A DNA stretch of 59,732 nucleotides, filler included, from Platydemus manokwari (Eukaryota): NCBI GenBank assembly GCA_037951405.1. It is 5 parts of 5 records of this genome, joined end to end, with 100 filler letters (N's around TTAATTAATTAA, not from the genome) between each part and the next. Parts side by side here need not be neighbours in the genome. Positions count along the whole stretch, not along the records: positions 1 to 9,712 come from JBBMOY011214433.1; 4 more parts are not named here. One strand, written 5' to 3'. This document shows, piece by piece, positions 311 to 55,538 of the stretch; positions within the stretch are counted from its first letter, which is position 1, and each line of letters begins with the position of its first letter. The notes beneath the pieces are model-generated. The model did no database searches, was not told where the DNA came from, and saw only the letters and a list, made by a program, of their open reading frames with translations. Made by a program: the position numbers and the translations under genes.

Positions 311-1151
311 ATTCCAATGATGATTAAAAAAGAAAGTTGTTAATGGATTGGAAAGCTTTTAGATAAAAATGCTATTGTTATGAAGATGAAAATAAAGATA
401 TGATGAAAGCTTAATGAAGTCGAATACCAACAATTAATAAAAAAGGAGTTACTAATTTTTTAAAGATTGTTTATTAGACAATAAAGTTTATCATTTAGAT
501 GCGAACAATATTAGTTCTGAAAATCATTAAATACTAGTATGGAACACAAATTAATTATTAATTACATTATTTTTATCAAAAGAGATTTATTTGGGTGGAT
601 GTTATAAATGCAAAACTGTTGATAAGGTTGGTAGAGGACAGATCTTGACCTGTTAATTTTATATTTCTATCCAATGTTCACCTTTGGTTTCTTATGGAAT
701 CTTAATGCCATTCTGGATCAATATCTTTCGGAATATAATTTCAATTAAAGGCAGCCTTTTTATATGTTCTACCAAAGAATTCTTTAATATTATTAATGCT
801 GAAGCGGTTTTAAATTTTATGAAGTCAAGATGTCATATGATAGGCCCGATATTATTTTACAAAAAATATGCTTTTTAATCGTGACTTAGTTTTTCTTCAT
901 TGTTTGCCTTGAAACAATTTCGAGTTAAAATGTTTGTACATGCTAATCATTGTATAATATATACTTGATTCCATTATAACGTATATTAATCAATATACAA
1001 CCCCAAAGTCTCTACTAAAATCTGGCCTTCAACTGGCAGTTATCCATTTTTACATTGATTTTTATACTAGCTATCTGTGTGTATTTTTTGTGTCATGTTG
1101 TATTATATTTTGATTTGATATTTTTTTTCGGTGTTCTTATTGGGTTTATAA

Positions 1152-1321
1152 GTTTTTACATGAGTTTGTGTGTTTTAATTGGTTATGTACATTTTTTCCA
1201 ACTGTAATTCACCATCTAACTTCACTGTGATTGCTTTATTGATATGTCGGTATGGTTCCAAAACAAAGGTTCCCAGGCGTAATTTCATTTTTCTTTTTGC
1301 TGAATTTTATCTTACTCAACA
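1152..1321 (-). repeat. LTR-like copy homologous to the 5' LTR at 7951-8207
   Basis: Colinear shared blocks: gtttttacatga, cttcactgt, gtatggt, ccaaaaca, tttttctttttgc, actcaaca. Two indels; roughly three-quarters identity by eye. Left boundary unclear. Confidence 0.7.
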
Positions 1322-1879
1322 ATATCAAACATCAAATATTATTGTTAATAAATTTCTATTATTTGCTTGTCACACATGATCTCTAACCTTAATTACTAGG
1401 TCCATTTGTTGGTCATAGATATGGCATTACAAATCACTCGCTTTCGTCCACTCATATTTGAAGATTATACCGCCAAAACAAATAAAAATCTAAGAAAAAG
1501 CAAGAAAATAAAAAAGCAAAAACGCAAAATTTATTGAATTTGTAAATGCGTGTAACACAATTTTAAACAATGAACAAAGTTCTTCTACCAAAGAGTCAAC
1601 TAATAACAATGAAATAACTTTAGCTGATAATACAAGTGATATTATTAAACTTGTTAAATTTATTTAACATTCTCCAGAAAATAAAAATATAATTTCATAT
1701 ATTTCAGAATCAAGTGCTAATATTTTAAAATATATTAATGAGGAGGAAGGTGTGAACTTTCGAATAGTAATTGAAATTATATTGGAAAATCTTAATGATT
1801 TTCGAAAAGAATATATTATTACAAAATAAATATATTCAAATAAAATATTAAGTTGACAGGAATGAAATTATTGCAAACG

Positions 1880-2095
1880 AGTTATTAAATATTGTATTCG
1901 TCTTGACAGTTCCTTGTATGTTTCTCTCGAATTCTATGGTATTTTTATTCAAAATGATTACCCGCTGGTTCGGTGTTATTTTAGCGTCCAATAAGACCTC
2001 CTCGTCATAATTGATCGCTGCAACAATTAATGGGGATCTGAAGCCGTTTGACTTCCTAACTGTGAATATCATATCGAGGAATATTAATATTTTTA
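1880..2095 (-). pseudogene. DEDDh (REX4/ISG20-like) 3'-5' exonuclease remnant, N-terminal half
   Basis: ILIFLDMIFTVRKSNGFRSPLIVAAINYDEEVLLDAKITPNQRV, then after a frameshift YHRIREKHTRNCQDE. Resembles the REX4-type pattern ALDCEMVG..G..S.LARVSIVNY.G.VL.D..VKP...V.DY.T..SGI...HL. Confidence 0.5.
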
Positions 2096-2399
2096 TTTCG
2101 TTTTGACTTAGCTTCGTTTCAAAAATTATTTTCAGTGTTTCATGTTTTCTATTGTTGGATTGTACTTCATATTCGGTATGCTTTGAAGTGGTTCCCTTTC
2201 CATTGGATTGAATCCTTTAGCTAGTTTTTCACTAGATTCCATGGCTATCTATGATAGTAAGCTGATTGCTCATATTCGGATGTTCCAATCTTCTGATTGA
2301 ATTTCTCACGAAGTTCTTCGTTCCATTTCGAATACACTTCCATTATGGTCGATGAATTCTGCGCTTTTTGAAAATATTTGGATTTTCTTTTTTTCCTTT

Positions 2400-2907
2400 T
2401 TGAAATTCCTACGAAACTCTGTAAGTTCTTACATTTATCTTCCTCCTGTATTGTAAATTTCCAATATCTTTTGTTTAAGTCAATAGTTGAAAATATTTGC
2501 GAATTCCCTATTTTATCATAAATAGTCTGTGGGAGGGGTAATGGATATGTGTCTTTTCTAGTGACAGCTTTTAATTTTCGATAATCCACACACCATCTGA
2601 TACTACTATATTTTTTCTTAACCAATACAACTGGAAATCCCCATGCAGAAAAACTGGGTCTTATAATGTTATGTTCAAGCATTTGTTGTTTTTGTCTTCT
2701 ACTTTCTTCCAAGTGTGCGTACGTTACACGGTACGGTCTCATTCTTATGGGTATCTCCTTACCTGGTAATAATGATATTTCATGTTCAACCACGTGAGTG
2801 CTATCTACGTTAAATTCATGTTTGGCTATGTTATCACCATATCGTTTAATTAATAATTTTAATTTTAACTTTTGATTTTCATTTATAACTTCACTATCAA
2901 TTTTCAT
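2400..2907 (-). pseudogene. pol: Ty3/gypsy reverse transcriptase, internally deleted
   Basis: PIRMRPYRV, IIRPSFSAWGFPVVLVKKK, RWCVDYRKL, DTYPLP, FSTIDL. The sequence jumps from EEDKCK directly to NLQSFVG, so the YxDD palm is missing. No RNase H or integrase seen. Confidence 0.9.
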
Positions 2908-3720
2908 ATCATCATAATTTTTTGTTGGTACTTTTTTAATAGTTGTGTCAATATCAGATGTGTATTAGGATTAAGCGTCACCATTCTATTTGCAAAGTTG
3001 GCTAACCTAATTGGAATCTTTTGATTCTCCATCAGTACTAATTCATAACAAACTGGCGTTTCGTATTTTTGTATAAATTGTTGGTTTGGTTCGAATAATA
3101 AACATTCTTTTTCTGTTTCCGTGGATCTAGCATAGTATACGACCTCTGAACGTGGTGGTATAATTAACGCACTGTCTAAATATAGTTCATTAGATTTATG
3201 CTTTAATTTGCCAGATGAGGCTTCGACAAGATTTCCTGTTCGGAAATCTAATGCTATGTTTCCTAGTCGTTCTAGCATATCCATTTCTAACACACATTTA
3301 AATGGGAAATTGTCCATTACTACCACAATGTGTTTTATTATTTTCCCCATCATTCCAATATTTGTAATAGTTCTCCCTACCATTTGTGGTGCTGACCCTG
3401 GTATTGTTTTTAAACTCTCTTCTCCCCAAACTATATTTTCTTCTTCCTTTTGAGTTAGAAAGTCTCTTGATACAATAGTGATTTTTGATCCTGCGTCAAC
3501 TTCCCTGTTATTTAACTTAATCCGTGTGGAGGGTGTTTGGCCTTTGCGTCCGAGTGTAATATATACATGTGAGCTAGGTATCCCTAGTTGATTTCTTCTC
3601 TCTACGTCCCAATTTATTCTTTTTATTTCTGGGGTTTCCTTTAAGATTGGTTTCATCTCTTTTAATTCAGTTAAAGGGTAAAATGGTAGTGGTGGTTTGA
3701 ATGTTGATGGTATGAACAAT
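2904..3720 (-). pseudogene. Retropepsin aspartic protease plus post-protease beta domain
   Basis: REVDAGSKITIVS (D[T/S]G-like site), CVLEMDML (ILGMD-like), and IIPPRSE...IPIRLANF..VTLNPNT, typical of the metazoan gypsy PR-RT linker. Confidence 0.8.
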
Positions 3721-3949
3721 TCATTAAAACGTGATTCATTTTCTTTTTCTAAACGCTCTAATTTTAATAAGGTTCCCGAATCTTCCTAATTTGGTACCGA
3801 TATGTCTGAGTGTGTGATAATATTGTTATCGTCCCTTGAGTTAGAATAATTATTTTCATCGTTTGGAGAGTGTCTTCTGAAATCGAAGATGTACTAAATC
3901 TTACTTTCCTTTTATTTTTCATTTCAGATTTTATATTATTCATTTCTTC

Positions 3950-5469
3950 ATATTGATGATTGATAATGAAAAATTTAGCCAAAAATGGAATACATCCTAG
4001 GATTAATTTCCATGAACAATGTCATATAGACGATGTTATATAGACGATAAGTAGATAATATTTGTGCTAATAAAACTTGTACAAATGTAAAATAAACATA
4101 CGCTCCTATCAATCCGGCACAGGCTTGCCCAAAGAATATGAATTTTCCCCAAATTTTTCCCATTGTGTTTAGAGTTGCTTTTTTGTAGTGATCTGAGCCT
4201 AGCAAGTATTCGTAATTAGCTTGACGACTTCCTTTTGGTAAAATAGTATCAACGAATTCTGTTATTACGCGTTCTCTCTTTGAAGGAAATAGTAAGTTGC
4301 GTCTGTTTTCCTCTAAGCCCTCTGGTGAATACATTCCCGTAGCTGCTAAATTATTTAAAGATGTAAAATTTATTAGGAAGTTTAATTTAATTAGTTGAAA
4401 TGAAAAGTATAATCTAATTTATTACTAAAATATTGTGCCAACTTAATATCGGCATTATGGACTTTTTCCTTGGCACTTTCTAATTTTGTTTTTGATACAT
4501 ATAATCCTTTATAATTGGTCTGATACAGTAATTTTCCACATTTTGTCACTGTGTCTTTTCTGATAAAGCGCATTCCATCTTCATTCAAGGTTGACATTAA
4601 AACAGTTGCGGTTTGCTTCGTTCTTACTGGGATGGCCTTTATCTTGCCCTTGGGTATTCGATCGGAAGGTAAGTTGTTAATAACTTCATTTACTCGTTCA
4701 CCCTTAACTTCTATTAAATTAGTTTTTTTTTAAAATGCCAAATTGCAGTCTTGTGACCTTACATTATATACTAGTACTGACTCGTCGGTTTGGCAACTTT
4801 TGTGTCTTGAGTTACAGAATGGATGAGTTTGCATTTACCCATTCAGTTCATCAAATACACCTTCCCATTGTCGTATTTCGACGGAATATTCCTCCATCAT
4901 TACAGATTTATCAACAATTTGTCCAGAAAATTCAAATGGTTCTCCTTTACATTCTCCATCTGTTTCTACGGATCCTCTAACTACAATGGATTACCTCATG
5001 ATATAACCTCTTTTTGCTGAAAATTTAATTTCAGTGTCTATTTTTAATTTTCTAGTTTTAAAAGCTGTCTCGCAGTTGTTGGCGTCTATCTGTAATGGTC
5101 TGGGGATCGCTTTCATCATCATCAACGATGTATGACTTCATTTACCACAGTGAAAACAAAAGTTGTCTTCTTAACGACGCATTCTTTTACTTGCATTCTA
5201 ATAAAATTTGATTCCTTATATAGAAAATAATGCTTATTTTCGTCATTAGAGATTTTCATCGGATATGCTTTCGGGCATTCCGTAATATCCATTAACGAAT
5301 AAATTTTTCCCATTTCCGTTTTAGAACAATCGTATGCTATTAAGGTTTTAACTTCATTACCGATGCTAAATAGCATTATCATCATCATAAAAATTATGTC
5401 TTTGCTCCAAAAGTTTAAAGATAACATTCCACTTCTTAATATCTTACTTTTCTTATTTTTTGATTTCAT
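3950..5469 (-). pseudogene. env: Chuvirus-like (Jingchuvirales-type) envelope glycoprotein, decayed
   Basis: Hydrophobic signal, then LIAYDC..YSLMDITEC, HCGK*SHTS, GSVETDGECKG, KCGKLLYQT, YFSNKLDY, LAATGMYS..LLFP, IWGKFIFFGQACAGLIG plus TM, SWKLILG. Order and spacing match chuviral-type G as recalled. Confidence 0.8.
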
Positions 5470-6799
5470 TAAATATATTCGATTTTTATTATTGATTGAT
5501 TAAATTTCACTAAATTCCGTATTTTCCTTTTTAATGACAATATCTGTATGATTATTATTATGATTATTAGTATTAAAATCTTGATGAAATGTTAAGTTAA
5601 ATGCTGCCTCTTAAATGTCGTACGTAACGTCATTTTTATGCAAATTGACTCGTTCATATTCTACGTTCTCATTAATAATACCTTGCTAGCAATGAACTTC
5701 GACGTTAATTTCATTTGCTTTTCCATCAACACATCCATAATTCAATAAATATTCATCGTCATCTAAATTTTGACCGCAATATGTTAAGATAATAACCGCT
5801 TCGTATCTCAACTTCTCTGAAATTCTTCTTCTGATTCTCTTTACCTTTGTACACCAATGCTCTTTGAAATTCTCCATTTCAACTCCTGATTTTAGCAAAC
5901 TGATTTCAAACGGAGGTAAATTTAAGCCTTCCTTTTTCCATATTTTTCCACATAACGTAAAAATACTTCTGAAAGTAGAATTAATAGGTAAACATTGTTC
6001 TATATACGGATAAACAAATATATTAATTCACTCAAATTACGAAACATTGATATATTTTCCTTAATAATTTCCAAAATTTTCATTATTTCGCCAAAATTCA
6101 ATGGCTCCTCCTTTAAAAGCGTACTCACCTGTTTTAGCATTCCTGTAGAGTTATTCCATTTTTCTATACATCTTTTTTCGATTTTCACAACAATATCATT
6201 TTCTGGCACGATGCTATAAATCATCACATAATCATCATCATGTAGAATTTGATTGAAAAACGTAAGCGGAGCATCTCCTCCAACAATCTGGCTTCTAATA
6301 TCTTGAACTCTCGAAAAGAATTTAGTTTTACTTTAATCAAATCACTTACCAAATTTTCAACAAAAAACTCAAAATCTTTTCCTTTATAAGTAACTGCTAT
6401 TAAATCTAACATTTCCGCCATTACCTTCATAAATCCTGAATTAATTGCCCTACTCCTCAAAAGCTGCGACGACATAACCGAACATAATTCATTTTCGTTT
6501 CTGCCTAAATTAGAAAGTTTACGTCTGTCCGTCACCGTATTCCAAACTATTCTCGAAATTTCCTCAAAATGCATCATACAAGTCTCTAATTTTATTTTCC
6601 AACTCCTCAATGTTTTAATACTCTCATCATCATCAATGTTCTCACCACTACTATCATAATCTTCATTTCTCCATCTCAACAACGTATTTGGTTTAATCAT
6701 TAAATTAAGCCCTTCTTCACCTCCTAGCATCTCGATCCATCGCTCCAGTTTATTTTTCATCATCGATATTTCTGATTCCCATGGATTTTGTGATTCCGA

Positions 6800-7916
6800 T
6801 TGTGTTAAATTAACTTTGGATTGATCGTCTTGAAAACTTACTTTCTTTATGGGAGACGACTTCTGAAATCTACTTGTGTTTCGTGGACATGATCTGGCAA
6901 AATGCCCGAAGTTACCGCAGGAGAAGCATTTAATATGACCCTGGGTGTTAACAATGTCTCTTTGCGGTGATTTTGTGAAGATTCCCGTTTTACAGTCGTT
7001 CGAAATATGACCGATTTTACCGCATGTGAAGCATGACCTATTGTCTCGAATCGGTGAATCTTTCCGTTTAAGAATTGGAGAAGTGAAACTACTTCGAGAT
7101 TTTGTTAGATTCTCACTGACAAATTTAAATTTGCATTGATTGGCATAATGCCCAATTCGGTTGCATTTAAAGCATATCACCCTTAGCTGCTTCTTTGGAG
7201 AATCGCTGACCGACAATTGACGTGATTTTGTGAATAATCGCGTGGATTTTGAATGGATATTGTAGATGGATTTTTTGGGTGATGACCTTTCAATTTTACC
7301 CATCAAGGAGAGATCTGTTTCTGTGGCATATGTGACAGGCTGGCGAATTATCGATGTAGATTTCATTTCTACCCTCATAGCTTTTTTTATGAGTTCATCG
7401 TAGGTGTTATAATCCACGAGACTGAGCGCTGTGCTGATGTGTTGGTGCACCCCTTTCAAAAATTGATCCTCAACCACTTTTCGCGTTTCTGCCGGCCACT
7501 CCGCTTTCGGCCCGAATGCTTTTTCCGCAAGTGTTGATAAATGGTACGCAAAATGGCCTACGATTTCGCCGGTTTTCTGCGACCTGGAGTAAAATTTTTG
7601 ACGAATGATGCGGCCCAATATCTCCGCTGATTAACTTCTCTGATAAGGCGTCTTTCATTGCTGTCCATTGGGCAATGTTTCGTCTGTCGATTTGATTGTA
7701 GGTTTCTCTTGCTGCGCCTTTCAAATAAAGAGGAAGTCTTTGGATCATCGTCCTTTCAGTCCAACCATATGTCGATGCATACATAAAATAGTCCGTCATA
7801 AAATCCACAAAGTCAACAGAAAGCTTTTGACAACTAGCACAATCAGTTTGTGGAACTAGTCGTACCTGGTGTTGAATTGACTGTTGGCCTGAAGAATATT
7901 GGTTCTCTGAATACAT
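6800..7916 (-). pseudogene. gag: Gag: capsid plus three CCHC zinc knuckles, one frameshift near 7618
   Basis: GWTERTMIQRLPLYLKGAARETY, SRSQKTGEIVGHFAYHLSTLAEKAF, DQFLKGV; knuckles CFKCNRIGHYANQC, CFTCGKIGHISNDC, CFSCGNFGHFARSC. Confidence 0.92.
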
Positions 7917-7934: not shown

Positions 7935-7948
7935 ATGAGGGCTCACCA
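7935..7948 (-). promoter_or_regulatory. Primer-binding site candidate (TGGTGAGCCCTCAT)
   Basis: TGG-initiated, lying directly between the LTR end and gag. Priming tRNA not identified. Confidence 0.6.
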
Positions 7949-7950
7949 AA

Positions 7951-8207
7951 TAATAGTTGGGGTATTAACAAATATTAAACTCTGACTGTATTTAGGTTTT
8001 TACATGAATTGGATTGGTCAATCCCTAGATGTGTGTTCTGTGTAGTTATGCCCTTTTTCCGATTGTACTTTGCTAGCTAGCTTCACTGTAATTGGCCGAT
8101 TGGCGTGCCTGTATGGTCGTGCAGGCATGCAAATGCTCAAAATGCCAAAACAGGGTTCCAAGGTGCAATTTCGTTTTTCTTTTTGCAGAATTTCATCTCA
8201 CTCAACA
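7951..8207 (-). repeat. 5' LTR, about 257 bp
   Basis: Begins TGTTGAG on the minus strand, abuts the PBS and is homologous to 1152-1321. Inner end lacks a perfect CA. Confidence 0.7.
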
Positions 8208-8600
8208 ATATGTATATGCCACAGACATATAAGAAGTTCCCGAATTCGAATAGGGACTTGGATCAACAATTCAGCTTTATCCTTTTCGTCATTCTGAATA
8301 AGGTATTTGTGTGTATTTACAAAATGACCTCCATAAGAAAATAAAAAATTAGCAAATAGTGACAATTTTTATTAAAATAAGACTAAGAATTTAAAACTAT
8401 TTGTACATTCCGCGTCTATGGAGAAAAAGTTTGACATATAAAATAATTGGAGGCCGAAATATCCTTGTAGAAATTAATGAGGCCTATTTTGGACATGCCA
8501 AATATAATAGCGGACGTTGAAGACATGGTATTTGAGTGTTGAATGACTAGAGAAAGAATTTCTTCTTATTTCTAGTCTACACCGAAGCATAGCGACTCTA
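8208..8600 (+). mobile_element. Merlin (IS1595/ISXO2-like) transposase remnant
   Basis: RIRIGTWINNSALS and IIGGRNILVEINEAYFGHAKYNSGR...HRSIATL resemble the Merlin motifs SIRxGTWF..S.LS and KIGG.G.IVEIDESKFGKRKYNRGR...DRS..TL. Contains stops. Confidence 0.75.
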
Positions 8601-9551: not shown

Positions 9552-9712
9552 GTTAGATTTATGTTACAAAATTTTTTAATCATAATTTTTTTTAATATTG
9601 TCTTTTTATCGTTGAATTGTTATTTTTTATTGTTATATACATTCTGAAATTCATAAATTTTTTTCTTACCGTTTTAATCAACATCTGGGAGATTTCCCAT
9701 GACATGAAAATT

Positions 9713-9812
9713 NNNNNNNNNNNNNNNNNNNNNNNNNNNNNNNNNNNNNNNNNNNNTTAATTAATTAANNNNNNNNNNNNNNNNNNNNNNNNNNNNNNNN
9801 NNNNNNNNNNNN
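9713..9812. other. Artificial contig spacer
   Basis: 44 N + TTAATTAATTAA (stops in all six frames) + 44 N. Confidence 0.98.
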
Positions 9813-20423: not shown

Positions 20424-20515
20424 GTGTGAGGTTTTGTTAAAATACGATAAATAATTAAAATTTACATAAGATTATAATTATAAAATTAGAGTTAAAAGAT
20501 ATTTTTAAAAAATTA
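20424..20515 (+). repeat. Dispersed repeat, homologue at 57018-57111
   Basis: Shared gtgtgagg...aaaatacgataaataattaaaattta...atatttttaaaaaatta. Confidence 0.65.
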
Positions 20516-20615
20516 NNNNNNNNNNNNNNNNNNNNNNNNNNNNNNNNNNNNNNNNNNNNTTAATTAATTAANNNNNNNNNNNNNNNNNNNNNNNNNNNNN
20601 NNNNNNNNNNNNNNN
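20516..20615. other. Artificial contig spacer
   Basis: 44 N + TTAATTAATTAA + 44 N. Confidence 0.98.
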
Positions 20616-24242: not shown

Positions 24243-24689
24243 TTTATTGCTTTAGGATATAATGTAGACGTTGACTGCTCGCCAACTGAGGTGAAGACTT
24301 CTTTACGTCCTGACTTAATAATCTGAACTTCGGATTGTAAAAATATGAAAAAACTTACATTTCTCGTAGATCTTAAGGTTCCACCTGATAAGGAAGAAAA
24401 CTTTAGGAATAACTTGGAGAGAAACTACCGAAAGTATGAAGACCTGGCAGTTCAAATAGCGAGGCAATCCAGAACTTCATTGAGTGTGCATGTGTTAAAC
24501 GTAGGTTGTTTAGGATCATGGGATCCACAGAATGATGGGGTCCTGAGGCGAATAGGGTTAGATAATAAGAGTTCAAATGAGTTAGCTTCAATTCTTGTTT
24601 CTAATTCTATTATAGAATCATATAGGTTATATAGATCTCACATAGCGAAGGAGGCTAGGCTTCCAATAAATAGCCCACCAATAATCTAA
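24243..24689 (+). mobile_element. 5'-truncated non-LTR retrotransposon, restriction-like endonuclease domain (NeSL/Utopia-like)
   Basis: LRPDLII*...LVDLKVP...RKYEDL...VGCLGSWDPQND.VL..IG...S..LY..H is the PD-(D/E)xK RLE signature with GSWDP. Confidence 0.8.
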
Positions 24690-28200: not shown

Positions 28201-30847
28201 TAATTCTAGCCGAAATAACAACTGGTATATTTCTTCAATCAGTTCCTTGGGGTGGAAGAGGTTCACAGAAGTGTTAATTATAAATTACAAACAATCAAAA
28301 TTTCTCTAAAATTTATTTTAATTTGATTTGCAGATTATTAAAGATGATAATTGGTAGACGTGGTTGAGAAAATGTGCGATGTACCTAATTTTAATGTTTT
28401 TTTTAAATATTGAGGTTTGGAGATCGAAACAGGTCTTGAGGTCATCAACAGAAATAATAAACAGCGCTTATCCTTTGTGAGTAACGATCTTTGTTTATGT
28501 GTAAAACAGTGCTGGATTTTTAGTTGTAATTAGTTTTAATAACTGTAATTGTCATCCAATAATCGAAATAATAAGCATTTGATATTGAATATCTTTGTGC
28601 CTTAGTTGAACCCTATTATTATTTTATCATCACGATATTCTGTAATGTATTATTGATATTTTTAATGGTTAGGATACTCTGTTAAAGAACAACAATGGTA
28701 AGGAGCCGCAATTATTTATTTTCTAAGTAAAATATTATTTTATAAAGGAATTCATAATTCAATGATTTGGATAAATTGCTTTGCTATAAAAAAATTACAG
28801 ATTTTAAAATCAATTAACCCAGAATTAAAATCCGCCTAATCGTAAATGATAATTTTATATCCATTTCTAATAAATAATAAACGAAATAGAAATTAGTCAT
28901 CATTAAAATGCGTAGTAACTTAAAATATTGTAGTAATTCCTAAAAAAGAGTTATGAATAAATTATAACATACCATCCAATTATTCATAACTCATAGTAAA
29001 TTTGTAGTATAAATATGTACCCTAAACCAGTTACCCTACGCCGACTAAGAAATTACTAATCACTAGCACAAAATCATCTGAATAAAAGCTCTCTTACCAA
29101 CCATCACGATAGGAAGTTAGATCTTCAATATATGCCTACTGCATTCTACTGGATGACCGAAGTCTTAAATTGTCATTTTCCTGTCAAGATGAAGCAGTAA
29201 TTAAGTAAGCCTTAATTGATAAAAAAAATCAATATCACCATTTACTCTTTTTAATTTCAAAGCTCAATTTTAGTTTGATTTTAAGATCACGTTATATATC
29301 GTAAACTTCTGGATGAAGCTTTGCTGTCCTTAAAATCCAACGCAAATTATTTTAGTCAGTTGTAACAATTATTTTTGTGTAACGATAGATTTTTTTTTTA
29401 TAAAAAAACTTGGTTTTTCATTGCGTTACGATAATGTCTGATCATATTTACAATGATTATATAATATAATAATTATTATCATCACATGGTAGGCGGTGTC
29501 AGGACAAAGGAACAACAATTTAAGGCTAATACATCTGAGTTATTTAATAGAACTCACACAGACTAATATAAACTAGAGTAGTGACAATAGAAAAAATTGT
29601 ACGTGCGAATATAAAATTGATAATAATTTAATATAAGTCTGATAGTAAAACCACCTATAAACCAAATGTATCATATATACATTATTTTATTCTGATCGAT
29701 TCCAAACCGCTGAGTGTAATTTATCAGATTTTACTATTGTTATGACCTAAATAAACAAATACCGAAACGTAAAATAGTTTCACCGATAAAACCGTAATAA
29801 AAATGGCCACAGAATCTATTTTTATTTATCTAGTAGGTTCAGCACCCAAAAGAAGGGAAAGATAATGAAAAGTTTACTATCATAAAAGATTGACCAGAGC
29901 TCTTTGTATAGTTTTAATTTTGTCTATATAAATCAATTCATTGAGCCTTAATTTTTATTTCTTCAATATTTTCAGGTCCACATTGAGTCTTTTAATTTCA
30001 GGTTTATCTTCATTCTTGACTGTCATTGAGCTATCTAATAATTCGTTACTTTATGTTGTCATTCCTCTACTGAAAGCAGAAATCAAATTAGAGAGTGTTT
30101 ATTTGATTAGATAGATAGTGTGTATCGAATTTTGATGTGTATATTTTTGGCATATTTCAAGGATTCATTGTGATAATTTTGCATTATTTTTGGCGTAATC
30201 AACAGTATGACTAAATATAATTATTATTATTTTGTAATTTCTGAAACGATATATATAACTTGCTTTTTATGCGAAAAAGTTTTTCAGCTGACTTGATTTA
30301 ACTTTGAGATGTTAGTTAATGTTAATTTGTAGACCATTAATGCCATGGATTTTTGTTGATCTACATTGAAATTTTTAGTCTCTGCATTACAATTTGATTC
30401 TTATTATAATGAATCTAATTAAGACTCCATACTTAATTTTAGAACTTTAATTTATTGGTTTAAAATTTCTCTATTTAATAAGCATATTTCTATTATTTTT
30501 AGAATGATTAATGGACGATTCTGGACGGATCCAATAATAATCCTAAATGAACATTCGTTTTGAAAATCCAAGAGTAAATTGAAGGTTTTAAATTACTATA
30601 ACTTTTTAATTAAGGAAAACCTAGTTACACCATAAAATAATTTAATTTTTGATGATTTGGTTAATTTTTCTGATCTTGTTAATATAAGTTTGTATTTCAT
30701 AGGAGTTTTCATAATTTTTAAAATTGATATTATGGAAAATACATGATAAATTTTTGAATTACTTTCAAATTATTAATTAATTAAATATTATTTTATGTGA
30801 AAACTTTTAATTGAATTTATACAATTAAGTATGAATTAAAATACAAA

Positions 30848-30947
30848 NNNNNNNNNNNNNNNNNNNNNNNNNNNNNNNNNNNNNNNNNNNNTTAATTAAT
30901 TAANNNNNNNNNNNNNNNNNNNNNNNNNNNNNNNNNNNNNNNNNNNN
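30848..30947. other. Artificial contig spacer
   Basis: 44 N + TTAATTAATTAA + 44 N. Confidence 0.98.
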
Positions 30948-31727
30948 TCACATTTGAACGATTGACGAAAGAAGATTTGGGATCATACAAATGTATTGCT
31001 AAAGGTACCACTGAAAATAATATGGAAATGGAATTAGAAGCTACCACCTATCAAAGAATTTCAGGATATGAATACAATAGAATTGGTAATAATTATATTC
31101 ACGATAATTTAATTATAATTATATATATTTGTAGAAGGAAACAATGACATTAGCAACAAAGTCAATATTGAAAGAAATATCGAAAGATCATCTGTCGAAT
31201 ATTCCATTAACATTGTATCATCACCCGAACAATTCAGAATTGGAGAAAGATTTACAATGCAATGTAAAGTTACTCCACAAATGAAAGATGTTAGATACCA
31301 ATGGTTCAAGAATAGCAATTTTTATTCAAACGAAGAAACTGTCACATTTGAACAATTAACGAAAGAGGATTTAGGATCATACAAATGTATTGCTAAAGGT
31401 ACCACTGAAAATAATATGGAAATGGAATTAGAAGCCACCACTTTTCAAAGAATATCTGGTTTGTGCTCTTCCGTTAATCGAAAGATAAAGAATAGAGAAC
31501 TACATTGCTCATCTGCCAACCGTGAGTTTTCTGGATCTGATGTAAAATGGTATTATAATGATAATGAATTGGATTCACTGAATTCTTACAAGAAACTTGG
31601 TGTTGAAAGAAAAGATATTAATTATGGCAGTATTTTGCTTTTGAAAAATATTTCGTTATGCAATGAAAAATTTATTCGTTGCAAGGTTGACAATATCATT
31701 CAAAACGTTAAAGTTGTTGAGTTCTGA
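30948..31727 (+). CDS. 3' end of a tandem immunoglobulin-domain protein (intron 31086-31134)
   Basis: Ig motifs MQCKV, YQWFKN, DLGSYKC. A near-identical coding repeat recurs at a 394-bp period (30948 vs 31342). Terminal divergent Ig (LHC..VKWYYN..IRCKV); no TM. Confidence 0.85.
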
Positions 31728-44995: not shown

Positions 44996-45765
44996 TTTTA
45001 ACATAAATATTTATTTACAATATAATTATAAACATAGAAAGAGAAAAATTCGATACATTTTTTCACCAATTATATTATTATTGATTTATATTTCTGTTTT
45101 TGAAGAAATATCCAATAGATAATTAACTCACGGAATAAAAATTTAAAAAAAATTACGAAAATACAAGTTTCATGGCTGTCTCAGTAATTGTACGGGAAAC
45201 GAGTTGGATCAATTTCAAAAAAAAATATATCGCGAAACCCAAAAAAAAAATAAATCAGCAGTTGATATTTTTTAACATTTCTCTAATGACATCACACTGT
45301 GAATTCATTACGAAATATTCAAATTGAATTTGACAAAAATTGTCAAAAAATCACAAGAAAATTATTTAAATCATTTTTTTAATTATCTTATTTTTTTTCA
45401 ATTCTTATAATGATTATCATTCACAGCAAATTTATTTATATTTATTTTAATTTTAAATTAATCTGGTATGATTTGGATGATTTCTTGGTAATTATTGTTA
45501 TTTTATTTATTATTATTCTTTCTTAATTTTATTATTATAAAAATAATAATTTTTATTTTATTATTTTTTTGTTAATTTATAAAATGATAATAATTATTAT
45601 TGTTAATATTTTCGTGATATAAATGAGAGAAAAAATTTACTTTTATATTGTGAATAATAATAATGATTATAATAATAATTATTATTATTCAAAATAATAT
45701 ACAAATTTAACAAATATATTTTGTAAATCTCAAAGATAACTCAATCAAAATGTCAATATTTCTCA

Positions 45766-45865
45766 NNNNNNNNNNNNNNNNNNNNNNNNNNNNNNNNNNN
45801 NNNNNNNNNTTAATTAATTAANNNNNNNNNNNNNNNNNNNNNNNNNNNNNNNNNNNNNNNNNNNN
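45766..45865. other. Artificial contig spacer
   Basis: 44 N + TTAATTAATTAA + 44 N. Confidence 0.98.
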
Positions 45866-47598
45866 TATTTTGACTTTGTCAGGTGAATTTGGATTGAAAT
45901 ATTTGACAATTGAATGACCTGCTTCATGGTATGCTGTTAAAACATTGTCTTTTTCTTGCATTGGACGATTTCTGGCCGAGCCCAATGAAAGTTTGGTCTG
46001 AGATTCCCACAAATGACTCATGGAAACGGCTGGATGATCATTCAATACACAAATAATAGCGGCTTGATTGACCATATTTTTGATATCAGCACCAGTATAA
46101 CCAATTGTTGATTTAGCCAAATTCTGAACATCGATATTTCCATTGGTTAATATTTTTGACAAATAAAGATTGAACAGAGCGATTCTGCCTCGAAAATCTG
46201 GTGGATAAACTTGAATTTTCAGATCGAATCTACCAGGTCGAAGAACAGCTTTGTCAAGCGCTTCTACTCGATTAGTGGCACCGATAACAATAATTCCATC
46301 ATTCTCAACAAATCCATCCATTTCAGACAACAATTGGTTTATCGATTGATTTGCATATGGATGACCCGGTGATGATGTTCGGTGACTACAAACCGCATCC
46401 AATTCATCAATAAACACAACACACGGACTATGTTCCTTGGCTTCATTGAAAAGCGCTCGAATTCGAGATGCACCAACACCGACAAACAATTCTTCAAACT
46501 GACTACCTGAAATATACAGAAATGGCACTCCGGCTTCACCAGCGACAGCTCGAGCCAGTAACGTTTTACCAATGCCAGGTTCACCACACAATAAAACCCC
46601 TTTGGGTAATTTTGCCCCAATGTCAGTAAATGCAGTGGGATTCTTCAAAAATCGTACAACGTCTTGAAGATCTTTCTTTACTTCATCGCACTAGAAAAGA
46701 AATAACCTAACAATAATTATGAAATAATAATCAATACTCCTTGGACATCATCAAATTTAACATCGACTTTGTTAACCAATGTTGCTCCACTTTCATTAGA
46801 TGATCTCGGTAAATATTTAGATATATAGGCTAAATAATGTAAACAATCCATTTTCAAAAGACTTAAAAGTGATTGTAAAAATAATGGAAATTTTAAAAAA
46901 TGTTTAATAAATGATAAAAATTCACTATTCAATTAAATTATTAAAAAAAATAATAATTTCTTTACCATTATTTACCGACGATTTCTTCAAATCCAAAAAA
47001 ATTGAAAATAAAAAGTATGCACCAAACAAGGCAAATATAACGGTGAATATTGTTTTGGATTTCTTTTTCGGATTCGATAAGACATTAATATATCTTTCAC
47101 AACCTAGCTGGTAAGCTTCACGAAGATAGTTTTGAAAATCAGGTCTTGTGCTAAATTTCTTCAATAAAGCTTCCCATTGATCTGCCGTTTTAGATTCTGT
47201 AATCCTATTTTGAGGATATTTTGCTTCGTCACTAATAGGACTATTTGAATGTCTTGTATGAAAATTTCTCTTGATCATAATATTAATGCTTCTTTGAAAA
47301 TTTTTAGAATTGAAATTTGTATGCCATTTGTTTGACATTAATTGCTCTTCCAAAATTGCTACAGATTTCGTTGATAAATTTAATTGTTTAATAAATGAAC
47401 TAAAATGGCATATTTCCTAACAGAAACGAAATTAATCGTTTAAAAACATAAATAAAACCTCATTCTGTTTTTCTGAAGGAAAATATTTATAAATTGTTTT
47501 AACATGAGATAGAATATAATTAAAAGATAAAGAATGTGGTGACTAAATACAAATTAAAAAAATTATAAATGAAATAATATTACCAAACTACAAAGCAT
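45866..47598 (-). CDS. YME1L1: Mitochondrial i-AAA protease YME1L1 (FtsH family), 3'-truncated by the contig end
   Basis: Walker A GEPGIGKT, Walker B VFIDE, SRH LRPGRFD, HEAGH zinc motif, a single TM and [11 protein letters not shown]. The start at 47598 is inferred through two short introns. Confidence 0.9.
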
Positions 47599-54569: not shown

Positions 54570-55538
54570 ATGTCTAGAGTGAATCCATCTGTTGTGAATT
54601 GCTCTGTTAATTGCACAAATCATTATGTTGTTGACATTGTTTATTTGTGTGTCTTAATTGTTTCAGGTATAATTTCCAATGCAATTGTTCCACTAGCAAT
54701 ATTGATTGATAAAAGATTGAGAACCGCAAGTAATTTTCTCATTCTTAATATCATCATGGTAGATCTGATCATGTGCTTCTATATCATACCTGTTATACTT
54801 GCTAACAGAATTTTATCAGAAAACATTATGAATCCAATGGGATGTGAAATAAATTCATTCATTACATTCCTTGGTATGGGAACAAACAATTTTTTATTTA
54901 CCATAATTTCAACTGATCGATATCTTTTTATATTGAAGCGATCAATCCATACTAAATATTTTACCAAACGAAGAACAGTTGCTTTACTGATTCTTTTCTG
55001 GGGTTTTTGGATTTTATATGGTATTGCATTGCGATTCATTCGAGGTTTCAATTATAATCCTATGGCATACATTTGCTTCCTAACAGATGATTACAGCAAC
55101 ACTGTTGCACTATCAGTTCTCATTATCTTCAATTTCATCGTACCCATTCTAGTAAGCTCCTGCTTCTATCTGATGCTATTAATCAAATTATTCAAAATAA
55201 AAAATCAAATGTCAAAAAATACTCAAAATGATTTTCAGAAGTCATCGAAATGGAATCTTAACAATCAAGAAATTAAGATGCTTTTTCTTCTAATTGGAAA
55301 TGTTGTAGCTTTGTTTGTTTGTTTGGCTCCATATACGTTCCACTGTTTTTTTGAGGCCTATCAAATATACAATGCTCCATTTATCCAGAAAATTATCCAC
55401 TGGGCAACTTTAACCAATTTTACTTTGAATGGATGGTTGTTTGGTTTGTTCAATTCTCGATTTCGCAATGCAGTTAAGTCTATGGTTAGACCAACAAATC
55501 GAATAAACATTTCTTCAAACAAACCGATTCGATTTTAA
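54570..55538 (+). CDS. Intronless class A (rhodopsin-like) GPCR, orphan or melatonin-receptor-like
   Basis: 322 aa with seven hydrophobic segments, TM1 SN, TM2 D, TM3 C and DRY, TM6 CLAPY, TM7 NGWLF, helix 8 NSRFR. Confidence 0.9.
   Translation: MSRVNPSVVNCSVNCTNHYVVDIVYLCVLIVSGIISNAIVPLAILIDKRLRTASNFLILNIIMVDLIMCFYIIPVILANRILSENIMNPMGCEINSFITFLGMGTNNFLFTIISTDRYLFILKRSIHTKYFTKRRTVALLILFWGFWILYGIALRFIRGFNYNPMAYICFLTDDYSNTVALSVLIIFNFIVPILVSSCFYLMLLIKLFKIKNQMSKNTQNDFQKSSKWNLNNQEIKMLFLLIGNVVALFVCLAPYTFHCFFEAYQIYNAPFIQKIIHWATLTNFTLNGWLFGLFNSRFRNAVKSMVRPTNRINISSNKPIRF

Follow-up and report, generated by a model that had tools for sequence, protein, structure and literature searches.

We analyzed a 59,732-nucleotide stretch of the Platydemus manokwari assembly GCA_037951405.1 (the window) and found a Ty3/gypsy retroelement of the long terminal repeat (LTR) type on its minus strand, in which the envelope glycoprotein (Env) lies between Gag and the protease. 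Very probably, this is a broken and internally deleted copy with a gB-type fusion gene at that place. Its host is likely a planarian-like flatworm, and it likely belongs to a compact, Burro-related kind of GAG-ENV-POL element whose intact members would make one membrane-threading polyprotein. The domain order, the LTR pair, the decay, the single open proteins in relatives, and a ubiquitin-like domain in the region between Gag and Env (region X) are the parts of this reading that were seen directly.

Position of Env between Gag and protease

Read on the minus strand from 8311 to 1096, the element begins with an LTR, a TGG primer-site-like motif, Gag, three CCHC knuckles, X, a hydrophobic segment, Env, a transmembrane (TM) anchor, and a second hydrophobic segment. 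It continues with an acidic linker, the protease (PR), a conserved spacer, the N-terminal part of the reverse transcriptase (RT), an unassigned kilobase (1432-2427), and the second LTR. An earlier note on this DNA had proposed the order Gag (three CCHC), X, signal, Env, TM, protease, and RT on this strand, and the domain, profile, and hydrophobicity calls bear it out. The features are listed below; KD is Kyte-Doolittle hydrophobicity, iE is the independent E value, and P numbers designate proteins found in the search for relatives.

7955..8311, minus strand: 5' LTR, ends approximate, outer end possibly 8364; direct repeat with 1096-1431
7937..7948, minus strand: primer-binding-site-like TGG motif just inside the LTR, read from the sequence; putative role suggested by position
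7361..7916, minus strand: Gag capsid region, frame shifted once near 7620; tblastn matches in the Gag of P0006, P0013, and P0079-P0082; Retrotrans_gag weak (E 0.07)
6887..7174, minus strand: three CCHC zinc knuckles; Pfam zf-CCHC, three stretches, E 3e-16
6170..6280, minus strand: likely end of a first ubiquitin-like domain (weak); hhalign to the relatives' module, probability 52%, E 1e-4; iE 0.075
5695..5988, minus strand: ubiquitin-like domain and the end of the preceding helical part; profile of eight relatives, iE 6e-14
5341..5397, minus strand: internal hydrophobic signal ahead of the conserved AYDC Env start; KD 1.59
4113..5337, minus strand: broken Env ectodomain of gB/chuvirus type that lacks about 135-140 codons at 4400; PF24664
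4056..4112, minus strand: Env TM anchor; KD 1.86
3962..4018, minus strand: second, weaker hydrophobic segment, likely on the membrane; KD 1.74
3264..3527, minus strand: aspartic protease with a degenerate catalytic motif; profile of eight relatives, iE 7e-14, and tblastn
2955..3203, minus strand: conserved spacer between protease and RT, where Burro has its dUTPase-like domain; profile of six relatives, iE 2e-16
2428..2886, minus strand: N-terminal part of RT, cut before the catalytic motif; RVT_1 E 6e-4, 37-47% to relatives
1432..2427, minus strand: stretch in place of the remaining pol, including a high-copy repeat near 1500-1900; contig depth peak
1096..1431, minus strand: 3' LTR with approximate ends, preceded by a purine-rich tract (read from the sequence); direct repeat with the 5' LTR

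Together with its LTRs, each of about 350 bp, the element is about 7.3 kb long, and it carries at least two deletions. Gag starts at the ATG at 7916 (minus strand). The two LTRs align globally at 69% over 314 columns, and the score of 204 compares with a maximum of 121 among 100 shuffles. Their local similarity is 85% over 65 nucleotides, blastn finds pieces at 87% and 70%, and contigs of other copies jump between both LTR ends. We tried 72 pairs of ends for a target-site duplication and obtained no clean one, only a single 6-base A-rich pair.

Pfam identified Env as PF24664 (Monjiviricetes_fusion) in three successive pieces (E 1e-9, 1e-9, and 2e-18). The protease at 3264..3527 had no Pfam match, and searches of Pfam and of PDB sequences gave no dUTPase match for the spacer. 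Ty3 RT was the best PDB match to the surviving N-terminal part of RT (E 1e-22; next match, E 1e-6), which confirms the gypsy assignment made earlier. The order PR-RT is present in the window, and PR-RT-RNase H-integrase (PR-RT-RH-IN) holds in the eight relatives with an integrase.

The copy is dead, and the polyprotein cannot be made from it alone. Eight frame changes, placed by tblastn to relatives, lie near 7620, 6310, 6015, 5155, 4400, 4020, 3880, and 2950, and there are eight in-frame stops. The frame from 6027 to 5125 has just three stops, which agrees with the earlier description of a frame broken only by isolated stops from about 6000 to the glycoprotein N terminus. One frameshift and one stop had been described for the linker between TM and protease; this count is correct from the second hydrophobic segment, but counting from the main TM anchor gives two frame changes along with the one stop. 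In tblastn, each relative with matches to both flanks of 4400 has about 135-140 residues with no counterpart at that point. Therefore, part of the Env ectodomain has been deleted, and at 4398 eight to nine contigs of other copies continue with different sequence. RT ends at about 2425, upstream of the catalytic motif, and the relatives' profiles for the RT end, RNase H, and integrase match nothing in the window. An identical contig spans the RT cut (1905-2497); it comes from a sequencing run that may be the assembly's own source, so it is not independent. The stretch 1432-2427 matches neither the tails of the relatives nor their RT end or integrase. Just inside the 3' LTR (1500-1900), the summed contig depth is about 36,500 at 1683-1943, and this repeat is probably a separate high-copy element.

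To find relatives, we used the middle Env piece as the query, with stops read as the letter X, and matched 73 proteins. We scanned 25 proteins, namely all 20 of these matches with at least 639 amino acids (aa) and five further long relatives from other searches. Gag, Env, and protease are in one open reading frame (ORF) in relatives: a Gag marker, Env, and protease share one protein in 9 of the 25 (5 by Pfam, 4 by the CCHC pattern), and 5 of the 25 run from CCHC through integrase. The single Gag-X-Env-PR-RT polyprotein proposed earlier is unreadable in this copy, with its eight frame changes and eight stops, but its Gag, Env, and protease parts have a counterpart in the single open protein of these nine relatives. 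A protease was present in 16 of the 25, after Env in every case. Env 3' of integrase, the arrangement that the earlier note had set against its own reading, occurred in none of the 25 proteins of this Env-selected set. P0033, among the 20 long matches, had no Env Pfam match and was uninformative on order.

Some relatives had other features. P0009 (HBK71150.1) is a CCHC-Env-PR-RT-RH-IN polyprotein of 2,627 aa that NCBI lists as a Flavobacteriaceae protein from a metagenome-assembled genome; it is likely animal DNA in a bacterial bin. Tandem aspartic-protease domains were seen in P0004, P0007, P0077, P0081, and P0082 (at most seven Pfam stretches, in P0077), and some of them follow integrase; the window contains a single protease. 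Ankyrin repeats were present in P0077 and P0079.

Other copies were found as sequencing contigs. In one run, 6,946 contigs matched the element, most at less than 95% identity, which makes this an old, multi-copy family. The X-Env junction is crossed by diverged contigs (5297-5900; about 85% identity), and such contigs also tile the linker from the Env tail to the protease (3661-3934, 3683-3947, and 3492-3787). Among the 12 length differences listed between contigs and element, some are near five of the eight frame changes. Together, the junction-crossing contigs and these length differences point to copy-specific decay rather than a nested insertion. The earlier statement that no nested-insertion boundary is visible also stands: diverged contigs cross both junctions, and no repeat bounds Env among the repeats listed.

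Predicted membrane path and the nature of region X

We compared the hydrophobic segments of 14 relatives. All 14 have a hydrophobic stretch at the matching place before Env (KD 1.0-2.2), ahead of a conserved A/G-Y/F-D-C, and exactly 14 Cys between signal and anchor. The signal and anchor are 527-553 residues apart in all 14, with no strongly hydrophobic stretch between them (KD at most 1.5). The anchor is at the same place (KD 1.8-2.4), and the second segment is weaker (KD 0.8-1.7). A signal, 14 Cys, one strong anchor, and a weaker segment fit a chain that enters by an internal signal, holds its ectodomain with seven disulfides in the lumen, and returns once to the cytosol. We suggest that intact members likely thread the endoplasmic reticulum (ER) membrane in this way.

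In this scenario, Gag and X would be synthesized in the cytosol, and the internal hydrophobic segment would direct the chain into the ER. Signal peptidase may cleave near the conserved A-Y/F-D-C, and the ectodomain would fold in the lumen with its seven disulfides. The anchor would bring the chain back to the cytosol, where protease and RT would have to act, and the second hydrophobic segment would lie on the membrane surface rather than cross it. The element protease would cut between the Env tail and Pol and between Gag and X. With Gag, Env, and Pol all starting on one membrane, budding of an enveloped particle would be favored; splicing or internal starts may set the product ratios. We found no study of the cutting or budding of such a membrane-spanning Gag-Env-Pol chain in the literature covered, which mostly excludes subscription papers.

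Region X, previously called an unknown domain, contains a ubiquitin-like domain, probably in two copies in this element. The identification in the window rests on the profile of eight relatives (iE 6e-14). That family profile of the X module matched ubiquilin and ubiquitin in the PDB, ubiquilin-2 at 1.7e-5. The modeled module of one relative (predicted local distance difference test, 91) has four helices followed by a beta-grasp, and Foldseek with this model returned only ubiquitin/SUMO-type folds (E 1e-5). The module is doubled in two relatives. It is not universal, because P0013, P0032, P0040, and P0059 have pre-Env sequence without it. A domain of this type is reported in Burro too.

The four-helix part matched no family in our searches; its Foldseek hits were only the ubiquitin/SUMO-type folds, and Atlas gave no usable match. 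A profile of the relatives' helical parts had no match in X of the window, and hhalign of 6227-6760 and 6003-6194 gave probabilities of 3% and 2%; the likeness to the element's own helical stretch is weak. The X alignment used as a search query returned just two of its own members. The four-helix part may resemble TFIIS N-terminal domains.

We tried two other candidates for X. A BCL2-like domain lies directly before the Env signal in P0006, P0010, P0012, P0020, P0079, and P0080 (by profile, with weak Pfam Bcl-2 matches in two), as in Burro; we rejected a Bcl-2 fold for X of the window, as a profile of five of these relatives picks up the sixth, P0012, yet matches nothing in the element. A ubiquitin cleavage signal like that of pestiviruses was set aside, because a Gly-Gly end is present in only one of nine aligned ubiquitin-like domains. 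Finally, the helix-ubiquitin tandem module between the zinc knuckles and the Env signal might be a dedicated, family-wide control part that remains at the cytosolic side of the ER and brings in host machinery for timing or sorting polyprotein processing. We regard this idea as doubtful.

Known systems and the host

The earlier note implied that Env between Gag and protease was new, but two papers place this layout in print. Arkhipova and Yushenova (2019; PMC6431247) describe an in-frame gag-env-pol layout in planarian Burro elements. Chary and Hayashi (PMC13524379) survey GAG-ENV-POL elements with a gB-type Env in Nematoda, Bryozoa, and Platyhelminthes. In the latter text, these elements are not monophyletic, their ectodomains lie either between a signal and a TM or between two TMs, the entry mechanism is stated to be unknown, and Sacco 2022 is cited for nematodes. 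A word search of its main text found neither "polyprotein" nor "ubiquitin." The intact ORF that serves there as a criterion is lacking in this decayed copy.

Smed_errantivirus_1 and _2 of that survey share the GAG-ENV-POL order, a gB-type Env, and a flatworm host with our element. By ungapped hand count, the Env is identical to theirs at 104/215 and 101/215 positions (47-48%), with all six Cys of the stretch shared; the best long library Env matches, at 31-37%, are below this. However, the Smed elements are described as intact, with 45 and 215 copies, whereas the present copy is broken and without most of pol.

Burro/GYPSM1, as described in PMC6431247, has a Gag with two to three CCHC, a ubiquitin/SUMO-like domain, and a PR-RT spacer, as here. 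Its Env is in frame between gag and pol and is related to mononegavirus fusion proteins; in our element the position is the same but the frame is broken. Decayed Burro fragments have been reported in a planarian (PMC6431247). In contrast to our element of about 7.3 kb, Burro reaches 30 kb, with an internal region of up to 25 kb, an ORF of 4,873-5,140 aa, and BCL2, MATH, BIR, and ankyrin cargo. A BCL2 profile had no match in the element, and Pfam found no ankyrin, MATH, or BIR in its ORFs. Because the giant size and the BCL2 domain of Burro proper were not found, we place the copy with the flatworm GAG-ENV-POL group, as a relative that is compact and defective.

Nematode endogenous retroviruses, as described in PMC13524379, are alike in having ENV before POL in a metavirus and an RNA-virus-type glycoprotein. 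However, their hosts are nematodes, and the host gene in the window groups with flatworms. Sacco et al. 2022 (J Gen Virol) reportedly describe a continuous gag-env-pro-pol ORF in these viruses. Flavivirus and pestivirus polyproteins have a capsid, an internal signal, a luminal fusion protein, an anchor, and cytosolic enzymes in one chain. We use them as a working analogy only, without homology; our element is reverse-transcribing, with a class III-type fusion protein and an aspartic protease. With the layout already known, this copy adds little: a compact BCL2-less family and a clearer reading of region X.

The window, with a GC content of about 26%, also contains the following host genes.

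45866-46690, minus strand: YME1L/FtsH protease gene
54570-55538, plus strand: single-exon gene for a rhodopsin-family G protein-coupled receptor
31119-31727, plus strand: immunoglobulin-domain exon

The best named match of YME1L is from a cestode, and in a quick tree the gene groups with three parasitic flatworms (SH-like approximate likelihood ratio test, 97). A flatworm host, as in the GAG-ENV-POL errantiviruses with gB-type Env, is what this tree gives. Taken together with the GC content and the Env match to the Smed elements, it makes a planarian-like flatworm likely. A 120-aa frame at 24327-24689 (plus strand) has no Pfam match; by its motif it resembles the endonuclease tail of a non-LTR retrotransposon. 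Runs of N around a short palindromic linker near 9710-9812, 20504-20615, 30836-30947, and 45754-45865 are assembly marks outside the element.

Alternative explanations and meaning

Several points weigh against our reading of a decayed copy whose intact members make one polyprotein in a flatworm host. The relatives were chosen by their Env, so relatives without Env could not appear, and they are gene calls with no stated host. The pre-Env segment is weakly hydrophobic (KD 1.0-1.3) in 4 of the 14 relatives. The contigs that hold the element are short and come from one run, which may be the assembly source and is thus not independent, and no open-frame copy from the host was seen among them. The element also lacks the BCL2, the ankyrin, and the giant size that typify Burro proper. 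YME1L is on a long branch in a tree that includes no named planarian.

An unlikely alternative, though one to be taken seriously, is that the ORF is unbroken in the genome while spliced or internally started messages supply most of the Env (or most of the Gag), with the full polyprotein as a minor product. A strict 1:1:1 ratio of Gag, Env, and Pol would be wasteful compared with the frameshift or splicing control that is usual in LTR elements. However, the frame is still open over both junctions in relatives with an Env identity of about 35-45%, which suggests that the fusion is translated. This alternative is also compatible with our preferred explanation. It is improbable that some of the frame changes or stops are programmed, by frameshift or read-through, so that Gag, Env, and Pol are not one plain ORF. 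Those near 6015, 4020, 3880, and 2950 are at or near domain borders, but there are also breaks inside the capsid, the ubiquitin-like domain, and Env, and collinear relatives are open at all eight frame-change sites. Near five of the eight, other copies show length differences, and decay is expected because the LTRs are only 69% alike.

We consider it very improbable that Env was inserted separately into a plain gypsy element, as a viral glycoprotein gene or as a second element, or that the arrangement is an assembly error. The diverged LTRs, the lack of a clean target-site duplication, and the deletions mean that the copy may be a recombinant of two copies. Against an insertion stand the Env-before-protease order in all 16 relatives with a protease, the diverged contigs across both Env junctions, the absence of a bounding repeat among those listed, and a layout that is published in PMC13524379 and PMC6431247.

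The layout is that of a retro-transcribing element that would build its capsid, fusion protein, and enzymes from a single membrane-spanning chain. If the doubtful control-module reading of region X were true, the family would be a retro-transcribing counterpart of flavivirus-style polyprotein processing, with its own regulator.

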